A stretch of 39,037 nt of DNA from Escherichia phage pO2, in the sequence record OR228483.1; one strand, given 5' to 3'. Positions 33,802 to 38,757 of this stretch are shown in pieces. The translations under genes were made by a program, and so were the position numbers. Each line of letters starts with the position of its first letter. Position 1 is the stretch's first letter. The notes under the pieces were generated by a model. It did not search any database. It was not told where the DNA came from and was given only the letters and a program-made list of their open reading frames with translations.

Positions 33802-36483
33802 TTAAGCGAATGCAAAGTCTGAAGACAAGATGTCCTCGATATTCAGTTTACCTTTCTTCGGAAGCTCAGGCAACTTGTCGCGCTGACTCTCGTGAAGCTG
33901 GTATTCGAACTGCTCGTAGAAGTCAAGCAGCACATCGTTGTCGCGGTAGGTCTCTACCATCGTCTCACGGACACCACGGAACAGATACTCAGCGTCAGCC
34001 GGGATGGTCCCGAAGCTATCGTGAATCACTGCGAATGACATCACGCCATACTTGCGGTGCGTGTGGACTACAGTCTTGCGGAGGTGGCTACCATCTTGTG
34101 AGTGGACGAAGTTCGGGCTAATGCCTGACTCCTGCTTGTGCTTGTCCAGCTCTTTCTTCGTACCTCTGTTGACGGTAGGTTGAAGGTTGAATGACCCTAA
34201 GAACATCAGGTTCAGACGAGTGGTATCTTTCTTGCGGTATTCCTGCCAGACCGGGAAACCATCAGGTGTGACCCAGTGTACCGGAAGGCATGGCTTCAGG
34301 ATTTCGCCAGTCTTCTTGTCCTTCACTTCAGCAGCCAGCAGCTTGGCAGCGCCTTGAAGCCACTTCATCGCGTCAACCGCAGCAACTACTGTCACACTCA
34401 CAGCTTCCCAAATCATCTTTGCCATGAAGCGAGACGCTTGGCTTGGCTCGGTGAACATTGCTCCCTTACCGGAGTCAATCGCTGGCATCACGGTGTCTTC
34501 GAACACTTGGTCGGCGAACCCATACTCTTTCGACCCGTAGGCCAGAGTCATGACCGAGCGCTTAGTGACCGAGCGAGACATACCGAATTGCAGCCACTGA
34601 CGGGCCAGCTCTCGTGTCCCCAGCTTGATACGTTCGGTAATCTCACCAGTTTTCTTATCCTCGTGAGTGACCATCTCGTTGTCAGTACCGTTAATCAGCA
34701 GGACTTTAAGCTCCTCCTCAATGCGGTCAGACACAATGCGGTAGATGTCTTGCACCTTACCGGATGGCGTCAGGTTTACTGCATGTCCACCGATGTGGTC
34801 ACGAAGCATCGCGCTGAAGTGCTGAATACCAGAGCATGACCCATCGAACGCTATCGGCAGCGAGCAGGAGTAAGACAGGCCGTGGTGCATTACGCCAGCA
34901 TACTCGAAGCAGAACGCGAGGAAACAGAACGGAGAGTCTAACTTGCCCCACCACTCAATACTATCCATCGGTGCCTTAGCAGCAGCCATGATGTTTTCGT
35001 GGTTGTCTTCCACCCACTTGATGCGCTCATCGAAGGTGACTTTATCGACACCCGCACAGTTTGCACCGTGGACCTTCAGCCATTTGAAACCGTCAGCACC
35101 AATAGGCTTGCCGACTGCCAGAGTCAGGAGACCCTTCTGCATGTCGTTACCCTGAGGGTTGAACATCGGGACAGCGTAGACACGACCTCGCCAATCCATG
35201 TTGTACGGGAACCAGATGGCCTTGAACTGAGAGAACTTGTTTGCTTGGTTAACGATAAAGCTCAGTGATAATCTGCGTGACTGTCTGGCCTTCTCGCGGC
35301 GATAGATACCAGCAGCAGCCTTCTTCCATGCCTTGAGTTCCTCCTCGGTCTCACCAGCATAGTCCTCAGGCTTCAGCGGTTCCATCTGAGGGATGTCATC
35401 AATAGGCGTGTTGTTCAGCTTCTCGACCATGTTCACCACGTCCAGAACCTTCTTGTTAACTTTCCAAGGTGTATTCTGAATGATGTTCACAGCGTCATAG
35501 ACTTCAGGCATGTATACGTCTTCATAACGTGCTACCGCAGACTTAGACCCTAAGCGAATCAATGGTAACGGTCTGCGACCTTTGGCCCAGTACCCACCAC
35601 CTACGACACCAGTCCACGGCTTAGGTGGAACGACGCAAGGCTGGTAGACTGGAGCGATACCCGCAAGGCTGAATCCTCGTTGTGCCATCTTCTTGACCCA
35701 GAAGTCTGACAGGTGGACCATCTCTACGTCAGCCGCTGCATTACCAGCACCGTACCGCTTAAGCTCGACCAGTTGTGTTGACTGGATGACAATCTCGAGC
35801 ATCTTGATGCCAACGTGGACAGCCTCTGTAGGACTCCAAGTCCCCCATGCATCTTCCAGTTGGCCTTGCTCCAGCATGGACGCCTCGACCGCTTGCATGT
35901 AGGCTTTCTTGTAGGATGCCCCAGCTCGCTTGTTCAGGTTCTCAGCTATCGCCTTCTTGAAGTGCTCCTTCTCTTTGTCACGGATGCGACCGAAGCGGAT
36001 TTCGTCCTCAAGTGTGCGACCTATCGCGGAGGCCATCGGTGTAATCGGTATCCCTTCAGGCTTGACCAGCTTGGAGAGTATGACCTTCAGTATGATAACC
36101 GCAGCGGACTCACAGGAGATGCGCATAGAGCGGTCCTTTACGGCCTTCTCTTCAGTGCTCAACATGGTGAACGCTACGCTAGGACGCGAGGTTGACAGCT
36201 TCCCGTCTGGGCCTTCATGCCACTCCTTGACGGCTTGCGCAATCTTAGGGACCAGAGTCTGCATCAAAGGCTTGGCGACCTGATTGTCTGCCAGTTCCCC
36301 GCGCTCAGTCTGTCGCTCAAGGTTCTTGATGAAACGTCGCTCGCCTTCTGTATATGCCTCATGCTCAAGCTGAAGCTGTTTGACTGCAAGGTCTTGCCCG
36401 TAGTGGTCAGCCAGCAGGTTAAACGGCTCAATGGCGTTCGACACATCAGAGAAGTCGTGTTTGTCAATAGAGATGACGCTCAT
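33802..36483 (-). CDS. gp1: Single-subunit DNA-directed RNA polymerase
   Basis: 893 aa; long identical blocks to T7/T3 RNA polymerase (PCVVPPKPWTG, FPYNMDWRGRVYA, AFDGSCSGIQHFSAM, HDSFGT, C-terminal FAFA). Confidence 0.98.
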   Translation of the reverse strand: MSVISIDKHDFSDVSNAIEPFNLLADHYGQDLAVKQLQLEHEAYTEGERRFIKNLERQTERGELADNQVAKPLMQTLVPKIAQAVKEWHEGPDGKLSTSRPSVAFTMLSTEEKAVKDRSMRISCESAAVIILKVILSKLVKPEGIPITPMASAIGRTLEDEIRFGRIRDKEKEHFKKAIAENLNKRAGASYKKAYMQAVEASMLEQGQLEDAWGTWSPTEAVHVGIKMLEIVIQSTQLVELKRYGAGNAAADVEMVHLSDFWVKKMAQRGFSLAGIAPVYQPCVVPPKPWTGVVGGGYWAKGRRPLPLIRLGSKSAVARYEDVYMPEVYDAVNIIQNTPWKVNKKVLDVVNMVEKLNNTPIDDIPQMEPLKPEDYAGETEEELKAWKKAAAGIYRREKARQSRRLSLSFIVNQANKFSQFKAIWFPYNMDWRGRVYAVPMFNPQGNDMQKGLLTLAVGKPIGADGFKWLKVHGANCAGVDKVTFDERIKWVEDNHENIMAAAKAPMDSIEWWGKLDSPFCFLAFCFEYAGVMHHGLSYSCSLPIAFDGSCSGIQHFSAMLRDHIGGHAVNLTPSGKVQDIYRIVSDRIEEELKVLLINGTDNEMVTHEDKKTGEITERIKLGTRELARQWLQFGMSRSVTKRSVMTLAYGSKEYGFADQVFEDTVMPAIDSGKGAMFTEPSQASRFMAKMIWEAVSVTVVAAVDAMKWLQGAAKLLAAEVKDKKTGEILKPCLPVHWVTPDGFPVWQEYRKKDTTRLNLMFLGSFNLQPTVNRGTKKELDKHKQESGISPNFVHSQDGSHLRKTVVHTHRKYGVMSFAVIHDSFGTIPADAEYLFRGVRETMVETYRDNDVLLDFYEQFEYQLHESQRDKLPELPKKGKLNIEDILSSDFAFA

Positions 36484-36503: not shown

Positions 36504-36544
36504 GTCTTTCACTTAGAGTCTCTTTGGTCTTTCACTTGGAGTCT
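36504..36544 (-). repeat. Two 18-bp direct repeats (GTCTTTCACTT[A/G]GAGTCT) in the RNA polymerase gene leader
   Basis: Units at 36504..36521 and 36527..36544, 17/18 identical. Confidence 0.6.
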
Positions 36545-36552
36545 TAGACCTT

Positions 36553-36575
36553 GAGTCCTATAGTGATAGTTTAGT
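36553..36575 (-). promoter_or_regulatory. Phage RNA polymerase promoter directly upstream of the RNA polymerase gene
   Basis: + strand GTCCTATAGTGATAGTTTAGTC, full match to the promoter family. Confidence 0.6.
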
Positions 36576-36580
36576 CATAA

Positions 36581-36907
36581 TTACTTGCATATCAATGGGT
36601 TAGCGTGAAGATGACTGAAGTCACCATGAGTCGTGTGCTTGATGGTTGACCGTTGGTCTATCGCCTTCCAGCCTGAGACCAGAAGTTTACCATCGTCTGT
36701 GATTGGTCGTCCACCATACGCCAGACACATCAGCTCGGACTTATGGCCCTCGGCCCGGAGTCTTGCTTGCAGAACCCGGTCGCGCTCCTGCTGTTGACGT
36801 GCGGTGTGACTTGACGTTCCGTGACGATACCCTGTAGCCAGTAGGCTTAACATGTTCATTTCTGCGTCCATAGAGTGTACCAGATTAATCCCGTATGATT
36901 TGTTCAT
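36581..36907 (-). CDS. Hypothetical early protein, 108 aa
   Basis: ATG at 36907 overlaps upstream stop (TAATG); no motif recognised. Confidence 0.5.
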   Translation of the reverse strand: MNKSYGINLVHSMDAEMNMLSLLATGYRHGTSSHTARQQQERDRVLQARLRAEGHKSELMCLAYGGRPITDDGKLLVSGWKAIDQRSTIKHTTHGDFSHLHANPLICK

Positions 36908-37104
36908 TACAGTTTGCTCCCAAGTGTTGCTATATCCCAGACGTTCGCTAAATTGCGCAGGAATCGTCCGTTAGGTTGACGTACAGTCCAGCGGACCATA
37001 CGTACATAGTTGAATTTATAGACTTTACGCGCTTTGTTGATGTCTCTCATCAGCATGTAGGCGATAAGTCCATAGCCTATGGCTATCAATAGTTCGATAC
37101 TCAT
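36907..37104 (-). CDS. Small early membrane protein, 65 aa
   Basis: N-terminal hydrophobic segment LLIAIGYGLIAYMLM, then basic tail. Confidence 0.5.
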   Translation of the reverse strand: MSIELLIAIGYGLIAYMLMRDINKARKVYKFNYVRMVRWTVRQPNGRFLRNLANVWDIATLGSKL

Positions 37105-37190
37105 AGTGATTTCCGTTTAATACAGTCGTATAACCCATAGCCTATCATCCAGACAACTGGCGCTAGGCAGACCCAATATCCCAAACTCAT
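37101..37190 (-). CDS. Small hydrophobic peptide, 29 aa
   Basis: Hand-found: ATG 37190 preceded by GGAG; MSLGYWVCLAPVVWMIGYGLYDCIKRKSL; stop overlaps next start (ATGA). Confidence 0.3.
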   Translation of the reverse strand: MSLGYWVCLAPVVWMIGYGLYDCIKRKSL

Positions 37191-37264
37191 AGTTAACTCC
37201 TATCAATTTAAGTGATAATCTTCGAGGCCACCTATCAGTCGATGACCTCTCGTCTATCACTCTC

Positions 37265-37636
37265 CTACACTTCCACCGCTACGGTAGTCATCTTGGTCAC
37301 AGTAAGGCCACCAGCAAGCTCGACCGCATAGCGTATCGCCTCGTCTTTGGACCTGAAATCTTTTCCAGCAAGGTGGTAAATATCACCGTTTATTACTTTG
37401 GTCGGCTTGCGGCTGACTGCTATGGCGTTGCTAAGGGAAAGCTCACCCTTCAACCACTGAGAGTGCCAGCGGCATACGCTCTTAGGAGATACGTTGAAGT
37501 CACTGGCCACCTTCGCAAGCACAGAGTTAAGTCTAGAAGAGCTGCATTGAGGCTGGCGCACCAAGTCGTATGCCTTTGCTACTCGGATTTTAAACTCGAC
37601 CGTGTAGCTGTTGCGGGCTGTCGTAGTTGTGTTCAT
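37265..37636 (-). CDS. Early helix-turn-helix (HTH) DNA-binding protein, 123 aa; HTH resembles the IS3-family OrfA / transposase_8 type
   Basis: YTVEFKIRVAKAY...LNSVLAKVASDFNVSPKSVCRWHSQW pattern; AAGGA before ATG; sits where T7 has gene 0.7. Confidence 0.6.
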   Translation of the reverse strand: MNTTTTARNSYTVEFKIRVAKAYDLVRQPQCSSSRLNSVLAKVASDFNVSPKSVCRWHSQWLKGELSLSNAIAVSRKPTKVINGDIYHLAGKDFRSKDEAIRYAVELAGGLTVTKMTTVAVEV

Positions 37637-37666
37637 GAGTGTATCCTTTTGTTAATTAATTAAATA

Positions 37667-37715
37667 AGTGACAATCAGTCAGGCCCCTCAGTCAAAGGGC
37701 CTGTAGTCTATCACT
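37667..37715 (-). promoter_or_regulatory. Early-region conserved hairpin element (candidate RNase III site), copy 1 of 3
   Basis: AGTGACAATCAGTCAGG ... CCTGTAGTCTATCACT with inner perfect hairpin GGCCC-N10-GGGCC. Confidence 0.4.
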
Positions 37716-37860
37716 CAGCGTGTAAACTATCGTGTATGCGCTTGCGTCTCCTGTAGACCACTTTCAAGAGACGCATGGCCTCCTCGTGGTTTAACCGCCC
37801 GGTTTTGACCAAAATCCTGGCGTTGGTGACGTGGTGCTGGCAGAGACCATAAGTTACCAT
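37711..37860 (-). CDS. Small basic protein, 49 aa, translationally coupled to the Ocr-like gene
   Basis: Hand-found: ATG 37860 overlaps Ocr stop (TGATG); [49 protein letters not shown]. Confidence 0.3.
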   Translation of the reverse strand: MVTYGLCQHHVTNARILVKTGRLNHEEAMRLLKVVYRRRKRIHDSLHAE

Positions 37861-38363
37861 CACTCGCAATCCTCAGCAGCAGGGTCAAACACTACGTTAT
37901 CGTTGATGTCTTCCACCTTCAGGTGGCGACCTATCGCATAGAAGTCTTTTGCACATGCAGTAGCGACCTCAAGAGCTACAGCTTGCACAATTATTTCGCC
38001 TGTTTTAGCGTCAACTACCCAATATTCATCCTCTTCGTCTGCCTCTTCATCCTCAAACCAGACTACATCCAAGCTATTAGACACATCGTTATAAAGCGCC
38101 TCATAGATGCGAGCTTGTAGGATACGCGTTACGTCCTTGGTTTCAGGCATCAGCCCAGAGTCTTCGAACTCGTGGTCTATACCATCAGCAGCCATCACCG
38201 TGAAAATCTCGTGGTAATAGTTCGGGACCTGACCGTCTACGACCTCATGCAGCGCATCGCTGTAGTCATCGCCTTCAGCTATTTCGTCGTACTGAATACG
38301 CTCATTGAACATCTCAACGGTTGCAGCCAGCAGCTCATAGTATGCGTTAGCATTACGTTCCAT
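37860..38363 (-). CDS. ocr: Ocr-like anti-restriction (DNA mimic) protein with about 50-aa C-terminal extension
   Basis: Residues ~15-115 match T7 Ocr ([43 protein letters not shown], acidic tract); 167 aa versus 117 in T7; GAGGA before ATG. Confidence 0.85.
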
Positions 38364-38384: not shown

Positions 38385-38434
38385 AGTGACTATCAGTCAG
38401 GCCGCTATGAGTTAACGACCTGTAGTTAATCACT
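38385..38434 (-). promoter_or_regulatory. Early-region conserved hairpin element, copy 2 of 3
   Basis: AGTGACTATCAGTCAGG ... CCTGTAGTTAATCACT. Confidence 0.4.
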
Positions 38435-38435
38435 C

Positions 38436-38690
38436 TCAGTTAGCGAAATAAGGAGCTGAGACGCCCGCTGTAGGACTCACGGCTATCTGCGAGTCTATCA
38501 GGTAGGTCTCGTTGTCTATACGCACAGTATCTACGCTGTAGTTGCTGAACGGCTTGCTTGAGACCTTGCGCACTACCACACGGTGACGCGCTCCTGTCAT
38601 CTCTTTAAGCTGAATCCACGCATAACCTTTAGTGTTCACGAATACGTCATTGCGATTAGTGATTGTGCTTAAGTGTTTCATAGTGTCCAT
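38436..38690 (-). CDS. Hypothetical first early protein, 84 aa, upstream of ocr
   Basis: Weak ribosome-binding site; no recognisable motif; position has no T7 counterpart. Confidence 0.45.
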   Translation of the reverse strand: MDTMKHLSTITNRNDVFVNTKGYAWIQLKEMTGARHRVVVRKVSSKPFSNYSVDTVRIDNETYLIDSQIAVSPTAGVSAPYFAN

Positions 38691-38700
38691 CCGTTAAGTT

Positions 38701-38757
38701 AGTGACTATCAGTCAGGGCCTTCAGATGTAGACTCAAAGACCCTGTAGTTAGTCGCT
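38701..38757 (-). promoter_or_regulatory. Early-region conserved hairpin element, copy 3 of 3
   Basis: AGTGACTATCAGTCAGGG ... CCCTGTAGTTAGTCGCT. Confidence 0.4.

Follow-up and report, generated by a model that had tools for sequence, protein, structure and literature searches.

Five short open reading frames (ORFs) lie between the ocr gene and the RNA polymerase gene of Escherichia phage pO2 (sequence record OR228483.1), where T7 carries the gene for the gp0.7 protein kinase. This raises the question of whether these ORFs have taken the place of the kinase, as the original prediction held, or are ordinary early genes of the group of phages to which pO2 belongs. The stretch of DNA analysed (39,037 nucleotides, here called the window) comprises the full genome of a Kayfunavirus, a K1F-like phage of the T7 group. 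It lies on the minus strand and shares 94–96% identity with known coliphages; for known phages the range is 92–96%. All five ORFs were found on the minus strand where they had been placed (Table 1), and they constitute the standard early genes of K1F-like (Kayfunavirus) phages, the sole uncommon one being the accessory gene for the 123-aa protein. The region had been taken to be unusual, but its gene set is kept across hundreds of sequenced phages and the absence of the kinase is usual in the K1F clade. We consider it quite probable that the locus as a whole (positions 36581–37860, minus strand) is to be explained as the distal portion of the class I early operon in a K1F-type Kayfunavirus. 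Being a standard early module of a well-sampled genus, in which kinase loss is a known clade trait, the region carries little weight for genome biology at large.

The layout would follow the T7/T3 plan (0.3 – 0.4 – R0.5 – 0.5 – 0.6 – (0.7) – 1), with the five genes presumably read by the host RNA polymerase. On the upstream side the block is bounded by ocr, the product of which shares 85% identity with K1F gp0.3 and 51% with T7 Ocr, and on the downstream side by gene 1, labelled as RNA polymerase in the annotations of all relatives. With up to 3 mismatches allowed, the promoter consensus found just upstream of gene 1 occurs 11 times in the genome, each time on the minus strand, as against 0.28 occurrences expected; the copy at this site marks the end of the block that is transcribed solely by host RNA polymerase. 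Since the five ORFs are located upstream of this first phage-type promoter, they are early genes, as had been proposed. A scan for sigma-70 promoters and terminators gave matches at chance level only.

Table 1. Features of the early region of the window (all on the minus strand), listed in the direction of transcription.
Feature	Position	Strand	Remarks
RNase III-type hairpin upstream of ocr (R0.3-like)	38385..38434	-	fold -23 kcal/mol, z -3.8
ocr (gene 0.3), 167 aa, C-terminal extension	37860..38363	-	upstream boundary; Pfam ocr 5.5e-31
49-aa basic protein, T7 gp0.4 family by profile (= K1F gp0.35)	37711..37860	-	ATG start; pI 10.5
RNase III-type hairpin homologous to T7 R0.5, holds stop codon of 49-aa gene	37666..37716	-	fold -25.8 kcal/mol, z -4.6
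123-aa protein ORF	37265-37636	-	
N-terminal domain, residues 1-64 of 123-aa protein	37445..37636	-	three-helix HTH, transposase (HTH_Tnp_1) / Brinker / CENP-B type
C-terminal domain, residues 65-123 of 123-aa protein (59 aa)	37268..37444	-	most conserved part
Second RNase III-type hairpin (R0.5-like), immediately 3' of 123-aa gene	37210..37262	-	fold -24.9 kcal/mol, z -3.6
29-aa hydrophobic peptide, one membrane helix	37101..37190	-	position of T7 gene 0.5
65-aa single-pass membrane protein, basic tail, T3 gene 0.6 family (= K1F gp0.37, also labelled '0.6')	36907..37104	-	
108-aa protein, Kayfunavirus-specific (= K1F gp0.38 family)	36581..36907	-	
Phage-RNA-polymerase promoter consensus directly upstream of gene 1	36556..36571	-	exact AACTATCACTATAGGA
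T7-type RNA polymerase gene (gene 1)	33802..36483	-	downstream boundary; 893-aa ORF

Each of the five ORFs has a Shine-Dalgarno-like motif, and the pN/pS values relative to phage ASO2B (0.10 for the 49-aa, 0.54 for the 123-aa, 0.49 for the 29-aa, 0.55 for the 65-aa and 0.35 for the 108-aa protein) indicate that all are retained as coding sequence and are under purifying selection. The tight packing with overlapping stop and start codons that had been described applies to three junctions, i.e., ocr/49 (1-nt overlap), 29/65 (ATGA, 4-nt overlap) and 65/108 (TAATG, 1-nt overlap), but not to those between the 49- and 123-aa genes and between the 123- and 29-aa genes, which are 74-nt gaps with one stable hairpin in each. 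None of the five products matched an anti-phage defence profile of PADLOC, and a comparison with the named families of NCBIfam yielded only sub-threshold HTH matches.

That a gp0.7-type kinase is lacking was confirmed, since the whole window, when searched by tblastn with T7 gp0.7 and the Dev2 kinase as queries, returned noise only (all E values at least 0.47); a search for the Pfam kinase domain among the five ORF products also gave no match. This absence is the usual state of the ocr plus gp0.4 (K1F-type) configuration. The kinase is absent from 15 of 23 related IMG/VR loci, and the K1F record is annotated without one, a statement for which we rely on the annotation of that record together with the searches of this analysis. 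None of the five genes replaces the kinase. Next to a T7-type kinase, both Dev2-like Kayfunaviruses (L033, L037 and L005) and T7/T3-like contigs (L007, L008 and L013) encode the 29-, 65- and 108-aa products as well as full-length relatives of the HTH protein. As the small genes are found beside the kinase in Dev2-like and in T3/T7-like phages, they are not substitutes for it, and the idea that they are present "instead of" the kinase is not supported.

A lineage-specific replacement, in which new functions in host takeover or anti-defence make up for the lost kinase, might still seem attractive: the window has no kinase, four of the five products are without known function (with PHROG families listed as "unknown function"), and an anti-defence role is frequent among the early-region accessory genes of T7-like phages, Ocr and the T7 kinase being examples (PMC13645617). 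We regard it as improbable, however, not only because of the coexistence with the kinase in Dev2-type Kayfunaviruses and T7/T3-like contigs, but also because the 65-aa family occurs in T3, which has gp0.7, because the 49-aa protein is a homologue of gp0.4 and T7 possesses both gp0.4 and the kinase, and because the 108-aa protein is unlike gp0.7, its shut-off domain included. The 108-aa gene fills the slot just before gene 1, as does the gene of T7 gp0.7 (PF27024), without any sequence or profile similarity between the products. The possibility that it encodes a stand-alone gp0.7 shut-off domain was rejected (hhalign probability 0.2%). In Dev2-type relatives, the gp0.7 homologue of 244 aa consists of the kinase domain alone.

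Judging from profile comparisons, the 49-aa protein is a member of the family of T7 gp0.4, a known FtsZ inhibitor. Among the PHROG profiles it matches phrog_5058 (5.6e-25) and, weakly, the T7 gp0.4 family phrog_7202; reciprocally, T7 gp0.4 matches phrog_5058 at 9e-5, and both proteins match phrog_25044. The assignment to PF26807 (Phage_T7_GP04) was made via counterparts, as the Pfam copy that was searched does not include this family: precomputed PF26807 matches exist for the counterpart in L009, with 42 of 49 residues identical, and for the chimera P0029. Direct similarity to T7 gp0.4 is weak (approximately 37% identity over 41 aa), and BLASTP at default settings gave no match between the two. 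The 49-aa protein resembles T7 gp0.4 in its size class, its site right after ocr, the 1-nt stop/start overlap, the reciprocal profile matches and the location of the stop codon inside an R0.5-type hairpin, but it is far more basic (Table 1). By homology to gp0.4 it may bind FtsZ and block Z-ring assembly and cell division: T7 gp0.4 binds FtsZ (PMC9372555, PMC13423816) and infection by K1F, the gp0.35 of which is 84% identical to the 49-aa protein, blocks the function of the FtsZ ring (PMC9372555). FtsZ binding is not assured, however, since W28 of T7 gp0.4, a residue with a reported escape substitution (PMC13423816), appears to be aligned with a His in the 49-aa protein in the alignment as we read it. 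As to the uncharacterised functions that had been envisaged for all five ORFs, four of them have no experimentally known function.

Within the genus, the 29-, 65- and 108-aa genes belong to the core early genes, and their translation is coupled. The hydropathy of the 29- and 65-aa products speaks for a single N-terminal membrane helix in each, in line with their earlier description as a hydrophobic peptide and a membrane protein. The 65-aa protein is present in 669 phage records and belongs to phrog_2385 (2.2e-30), the PHROG that also contains T3 gp0.6 (9.1e-30), with which it shares 42% identity in BLASTP (E 2e-10). Both are 65 aa long, with a hydrophobic helix at the N-terminus and, after it, a basic tail that contains an R(F/W)TVRxxNGRF motif. 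Clear homology to characterised T7-group early proteins, which had been considered the finding that would speak against the predicted novelty, was therefore encountered for two of the products, the 49-aa protein (T7 gp0.4) and the 65-aa protein (T3 gene 0.6). To the best of our knowledge, the T3 gene 0.6 protein has no known function. No BLAST similarity was detected between the 65-aa protein and T7 gp0.6A/B, an MreB inhibitor, and T7 gp0.6A falls in other PHROGs (phrog_8393).

The 29-aa peptide, with a hydropathy maximum of 1.56, gave no PHROG match and no BLAST similarity to T7 gp0.5 (PF26813, Gp0_5); the two resemble each other only in being hydrophobic and in being encoded downstream of the R0.5 hairpin. 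One may ask whether some of the small ORFs, and this very short one especially, are simply chance ORFs, the more so as the 29- and 65-aa ORFs were left uncalled in one near-identical contig and the 29-aa ORF was left uncalled in PSK1. This is hardly credible in view of its recovery by tblastn from 90 phage records, down to 58% identity and with the frame intact, its AGGAG Shine-Dalgarno sequence and ATGA coupling to the next gene, a pN/pS below 1 with conservative substitutions, and the existence of a hydrophobic peptide gene at the same position in T7 (0.5) and K1F (55 aa).

The early region of K1F (gp0.3, gp0.35, gp0.36/55-aa, gp0.37 = "0.6", gp0.38, gene 1) shows the same order, likewise without a kinase. 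The two phages share not only the 49-aa protein but also the 65-aa protein, at 86% identity, and the core of the 108-aa protein. K1F differs in having the 55-aa hydrophobic protein where the window phage has the 29-aa peptide, and its gp0.38 copy in NC_007456 is broken by a stop codon. Several of the "hypothetical proteins" annotated in hundreds of records of Kayfunaviruses can be named as members of the gp0.4, T3 gp0.6 and K1F gp0.38 families. Phage-therapy work directed at pathogenic E. coli, K1 strains among them, makes use of Kayfunaviruses, and their engineering benefits from a distinction between core and optional early genes.

The optional part of the region is associated with the hairpins. 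The hairpin that follows the 49-aa gene has GAGTGATAGAC...GATTGTCACTT arms that can be aligned with T7 R0.5, and the hairpin upstream of ocr is alignable with T7 R0.5 as well as with the other hairpins of the window; the T7 R0.5 alignment contains 19 invariant columns. The likeness to T7 R0.5 extends to the GAGTGATAGAC...GGCC...GATTATCACTT arms, the irregular shape of the hairpin and the same place after gene 0.4. In contrast to T7, however, the site is doubled here and flanks an inserted gene. The second copy, located after the 123-aa gene, has a near-identical equivalent in K1F, where a single hairpin follows the 49-aa gene. The intergenic hairpins gave no matches in Rfam, which has no family for such sites. 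We infer processing by RNase III at these hairpins solely from their homology to T7 R0.5. Cuts at the R0.5-type hairpins would divide the early transcript into a piece with ocr and 0.4, a piece with the 123-aa gene, and a piece with the 29-, 65- and 108-aa genes that possibly continues into gene 1. The 123-aa gene forms, together with one duplicated hairpin, an optional cassette. K1F has one R0.5-type hairpin only and no 123-aa gene, PSK1 and UKE3-2 carry a 75-aa gene in its place, and a 75-aa Cys-rich protein occupies this slot in many of the closest relatives of the window phage.

The 123-aa protein occurs in about 9–17% of the relatives and was found in the early regions of T7-like phages only. 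The IS3-OrfA-like HTH that had been recognised in it is supported: residues 1–64 resemble, in both their three-helix DNA-binding fold and their profile, the HTH of IS3-family OrfA, Brinker and CENP-B (Pfam HTH_Tnp_1 and BrkDBD). For the protein itself, no HTH family of Pfam gives a score that reaches the gathering cut-off, and the AF2 model obtained is of only moderate quality (pLDDT 70.7). The C-terminal domain has a mean column identity of 85% and a pN/pS of ~0.17 versus Penshu1 and Dev2. It matched nothing in Pfam, PHROG or PDB, and its resemblance to DUF2188 (PF09954) was rejected as sub-threshold (E 0.13; 12.9 bits, the cut-off being 22; only 19 residues covered). Distant relatives retain the combination of HTH and C-terminal domain, and the latter is also seen fused to other N-termini. 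One relative bears the source name "SiR5 protein", for which a literature search gave nothing and which may be a structural-genomics target label.

In view of the resemblance to OrfA, the 123-aa gene might have been left behind by an insertion sequence, or travel with one as a passenger (IS3-type OrfA), and would then be selfish DNA and not a phage function. There are weak matches to HTH_Tnp_1 and to IS66 TnpA-like proteins, the relatives in SFPH2 and Phoria are named "Transposase" in UniProt, and the distribution is patchy and cassette-like. However, no OrfB/DDE catalytic ORF, no other transposase partner and no inverted-repeat IS ends accompany the gene; RNase III-type hairpins form the borders of the cassette, and all relatives with a readable genomic context are situated in the early region of T7-like phages. 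Moreover, the best conserved part is the non-HTH C-terminal domain, which is under purifying selection. Unlike an IS3-family OrfA, the protein combines its HTH with a 59-aa domain that is confined to T7-like phages, and an origin as selfish DNA is very improbable.

It seems most likely that the 123-aa protein acts as an early DNA-binding regulator, with the HTH contacting DNA and the 59-aa C-terminal domain possibly serving oligomerisation or the binding of a partner. A search for its DNA target found none; a TTAATTAATTAA palindrome upstream of the gene was considered as an operator and dropped because it is not conserved among relatives. More specifically, the protein could be an Aca-like regulator and adjust the expression of an anti-restriction gene nearby, be it ocr or SAM lyase. 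L008 and L013 have the gene directly upstream of one or the other of these, the window and L007 have it a short distance downstream of ocr, and Dev2 has the C-terminal domain fused to an N-terminal fragment of SAM lyase. We nevertheless consider this unlikely, as there is no conserved operator-like palindrome upstream of the gene across the relatives, the early promoters are far upstream, and in L033 and L037 the gene adjoins the kinase and not SAM lyase; we also know of no autoregulation of this kind among T7-group early genes. It is conceivable, although doubtful, that the 123-aa protein belongs to an undescribed family of mobile early effectors of T7-like phages, moving from genome to genome in a cassette bounded by RNase III-site hairpins, in which the C-terminal domain would have a new fold or function targeting a host process or defence system and the HTH would be a swappable targeting module. 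With its conserved, unannotated C-terminal domain, this accessory protein provides one small, well-delimited experimental target.

The long ORFs of the window all lie on the minus strand, and its right end is a T7-type early region in which an 84-aa ORF, ocr, and five small ORFs precede the gene for an 893-aa single-subunit RNA polymerase (gene 1). The early region matched 249 phage records (megablast), the best being E. coli Kayfunavirus (K1F-like) phages at 92–94% identity, and 25 kb of the remaining genome is 94–96% identical to phages UFJF_EcSW4, Vec13, and vB_EcoP_F. With these matches of 92–96% to K1F-like phages, the window is unremarkable within a genus that has been densely sampled. 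Its early region is a standard, already catalogued Kayfunavirus early module, in which named T7/T3 early families account for two of the five genes and the 123-aa protein is the sole uncommon element. The ocr product is longer than that of T7 (117 aa); the Pfam ocr match does not go beyond residue 95, and T7 Ocr can be aligned up to about residue 113, so that roughly 50–70 residues represent a C-terminal extension, which is common to K1F and relatives.

Features of the early region of Escherichia phage pO2 (OR228483.1)
Feature	Position	Strand	Remarks
GACTGATAGTC-type hairpin arm	about 38704-38714	-	precedes 84-aa ORF
84-aa ORF	38436-38690	-	upstream of ocr; phrog_10124; K1F gp0.2 family
ocr	37860-38363	-	167 aa
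49-aa ORF	37711-37860	-	K1F gp0.35
123-aa ORF	37265-37636	-	HTH (residues 1-64) and C-terminal domain, CTD (residues 65-123)
29-aa ORF	37101-37190	-	
65-aa ORF	36907-37104	-	T3 gene 0.6 family (K1F gp0.37)
108-aa ORF	36581-36907	-	K1F gp0.38 family
Sigma-70-like promoter, TTGATA-16-TAAACT	36568-36595	-	overlaps final codons (PLICK) of 108-aa gene
Phage RNA polymerase promoter consensus AACTATCACTATAGGA, exact copy	36556-36571	-	directly upstream of RNA polymerase gene
Two direct repeats of AAGTGAAAGAC, 23 nt apart	36504-36547	-	leader between promoter and gene 1 start codon

An ORF scan recovered the five ORFs exactly where the original prediction had placed them (36581-37860), and the 49-aa product is basic, as proposed (pI 10.5). 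The tight packing with overlapping stop and start codons that had been described holds for the ocr/49 (one-base overlap, TGATG), 29/65 (ATGA), and 65/108 (TAATG) junctions, but not for 49/123 and 123/29, which are gaps of 74 nt each. All five ORFs have a Shine-Dalgarno-like motif, and pN/pS versus phage ASO2B is 0.10 (49 aa), 0.54 (123 aa), 0.49 (29 aa), 0.55 (65 aa), and 0.35 (108 aa). Together with their conservation, which speaks against some of them being chance ORFs and led us to reject that explanation, this indicates that all five behave as genes. The 29- and 65-aa products, earlier called hydrophobic and membrane proteins, each possess one strongly hydrophobic N-terminal segment in hydropathy analysis and are presumably inserted into the membrane.

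Stable hairpins (-23 to -26 kcal/mol, z -3.6 to -4.6; none of 200 shuffles folds as well) occur in both 74-nt gaps and upstream of ocr, whereas none of this kind was found before gene 1 in the fold test (z -0.6). The hairpin arms (GAGTGATAGAC ... GATTATCACTT) align with the T7 RNase III processing site R0.5 and with elements of K1F, ASO2B, and UKE3-2; equivalent elements are annotated as R0.3, R0.5, and R1 in the T3 record. By homology, RNase III would cut the early transcript at these hairpins into an ocr-49 unit, a 123 unit, and a unit starting with 29-65-108. The position of the phage promoter implies that the five ORFs are transcribed only by the host RNA polymerase, and their earlier assignment as early genes was thus correct. 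This promoter motif is also present in K1F and PSK1. Upstream of gene 1, the T7 record annotates only E. coli promoter C; a phage promoter upstream of its own gene would mean positive feedback for the polymerase gene. The AAGTGAAAGAC repeats are conserved in K1F, PSK1, and UKE3-2.

In agreement with the original prediction, no T7-type kinase was detectable in the window with T7 gp0.7 and the kinase of the relative Dev2 as queries. However, the proposal that the five ORFs occur instead of a kinase was not borne out. Among 23 IMG/VR loci, fetched via the 65-aa gene and scored by tblastn, 15 lack the kinase and possess a gp0.4-like gene, preceded by ocr (10 loci) or by a 174-aa Penshu1-type protein (5 loci); hence, the K1F-type configuration normally has no kinase. 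The other 8 carry a Dev2-type kinase, which 7 of them pair with a T3-like SAM lyase, without gp0.4. The Dev2 kinase (244 aa) is 32% identical to the kinase domain of T7 gp0.7 (E 2e-35) and is without the shut-off domain. The genus thus shows two alternating early-region configurations (L017-L039, i.e., the IMG/VR loci, and L005, Dev2): ocr or the 174-aa protein with gp0.4, versus SAM lyase with a kinase-domain-only gp0.7 homologue. A single locus (L030) combines ocr and kinase. The 65- and 108-aa genes occur with and without the kinase, many loci in each group encode the 29-aa peptide, and the HTH-CTD gene is present in 4 of the 23 loci, two with and two without kinase. The five ORFs thus include no alternative to the kinase. 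The 174-aa protein (Penshu1, L006 962-1486; L018, L019, L025, L026, L039) fills the ocr slot and has no match in Pfam. Possibly a kinase-like protein in degenerate or miniature form, it resembles at its N-terminus (KLIGKGAFTKCYLKDCGKRVLLVS) the glycine loop of the T7 kinase and its surroundings (LGNGHFSAAYSH...RVIKVG).

Based on sequence comparison and exact synteny, the 49-aa protein is a member of the gp0.4 family. Three PHROG families are matched both by it and by T7 gp0.4: phrog_5058 (5.6e-25 and 9e-5, respectively), phrog_7202 (weakly and at 4.6e-33), and phrog_25044 (weakly and at 9e-7). Its 51-aa counterpart in L009, a contig with a near-identical early region, is identical at 42 of 49 positions and has a precomputed Pfam match to PF26807 (Phage_T7_GP04), as does P0029, a chimeric relative of the 123-aa protein. 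Identity is 84% to the K1F counterpart but only 37% over 41 aa to T7 gp0.4, the latter seen with permissive BLAST settings only. As in T7, the final base of the ocr stop codon is also the first base of the gene's start codon, and the R0.5 hairpin includes the gene's stop codon in its 5' arm. T7 gp0.4 is an FtsZ-binding protein that blocks division; K1F infection likewise blocks FtsZ function (PMC9372555; PMC13423816). The 49-aa protein is, therefore, predicted from its family to inhibit FtsZ.

Relatives of the 123-aa protein occur in 23 of about 50,700 phage records (tblastn; best full-length match 57% identical) and in about 30 clusters of a 5.8-billion-protein search, the complete contigs being ~40 kb. 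The CTD is by far the better conserved part (mean column identity 85%), and its 59 codons show a pS of about 0.52–0.56 and a pN of about 0.09 versus Penshu1 and Dev2, i.e., it is under purifying selection. It matches nothing in Pfam, PHROG, NCBIfam, or PDB; a resemblance to DUF2188 was sub-threshold and was discarded. When 1.84 billion representatives were searched with a profile, only about a dozen small proteins were added, and in each of them this CTD comes after one or two HTH motifs; those with readable context are from early regions of T7/T3-like phages that encode a T7-type kinase. The gene order in these regions is ocr ... HTH - kinase in L007, HTH - ocr - gp0.4 - gp0.5 - kinase in L008, and HTH - SAM lyase - gp0.4 - kinase in L013. 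An origin as an IS remnant was rejected, since a catalytic ORF and IS ends are absent and the distribution is confined to phage early regions. The protein probably binds DNA, and adjacency to an anti-restriction gene is suggestive of an Aca-like regulator of that gene, a role that we considered, although there is no conserved operator. This HTH-CTD accessory protein is the one lead from the region worth an experiment.

In chimeric proteins the CTD follows a different N-terminus, which is gp0.4-like in P0029, a fragment of a small 41-aa early protein in P0026, and a SAM lyase fragment in P0027; the breakpoint is always at the CTD start. P0027 is Dev2 gp0.2 (L005 759-1076), named "SAM-dependent methyltransferase" in RefSeq. 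The slot of the 123-aa gene is bounded by two hairpins here, whereas in K1F the slot is empty and there is a single R0.5-type hairpin, and in PSK1 and UKE3-2 two hairpins enclose a gene for a 75-aa Cys-rich protein. This acidic protein (loci L001 1865-2092 and L002 2317-2544) has a CxxH...CxxC pattern, is possibly a zinc ribbon, and replaces the HTH protein in many of the closest relatives of the window.

The 65-aa protein (phrog_2385, 2.2e-30) is 42% identical (E 2e-10) to the product of T3 gene 0.6, which has the same length and matches the same family (9.1e-30); no relationship with T7 gp0.6 was found by BLAST and PHROG. By tblastn, the family was traced to 669 phage records, among them Kvp1 and Klebsiella Przondovirus-like phages. 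The same approach detected the 29-aa peptide in 90 phage records. Its gene lies 3' of an R0.5-type hairpin, like T7 gene 0.5 and the gene for a 55-aa hydrophobic protein of K1F, but BLAST revealed no sequence similarity to T7 gp0.5. The C-terminal tail of the 108-aa protein (GDFSHLHANPLICK) is near-invariant, even in N-terminally different variants and Dev2 gp0.38. By analogy with E. coli promoter C of T7/T3, this may partly reflect a DNA-level constraint. Compared with its relatives' copies, K1F gp0.38 (L004, NC_007456, 2205-2470) has an in-frame stop after "MKTVYINRPSIR" and the RefSeq record, therefore, annotates nothing there.
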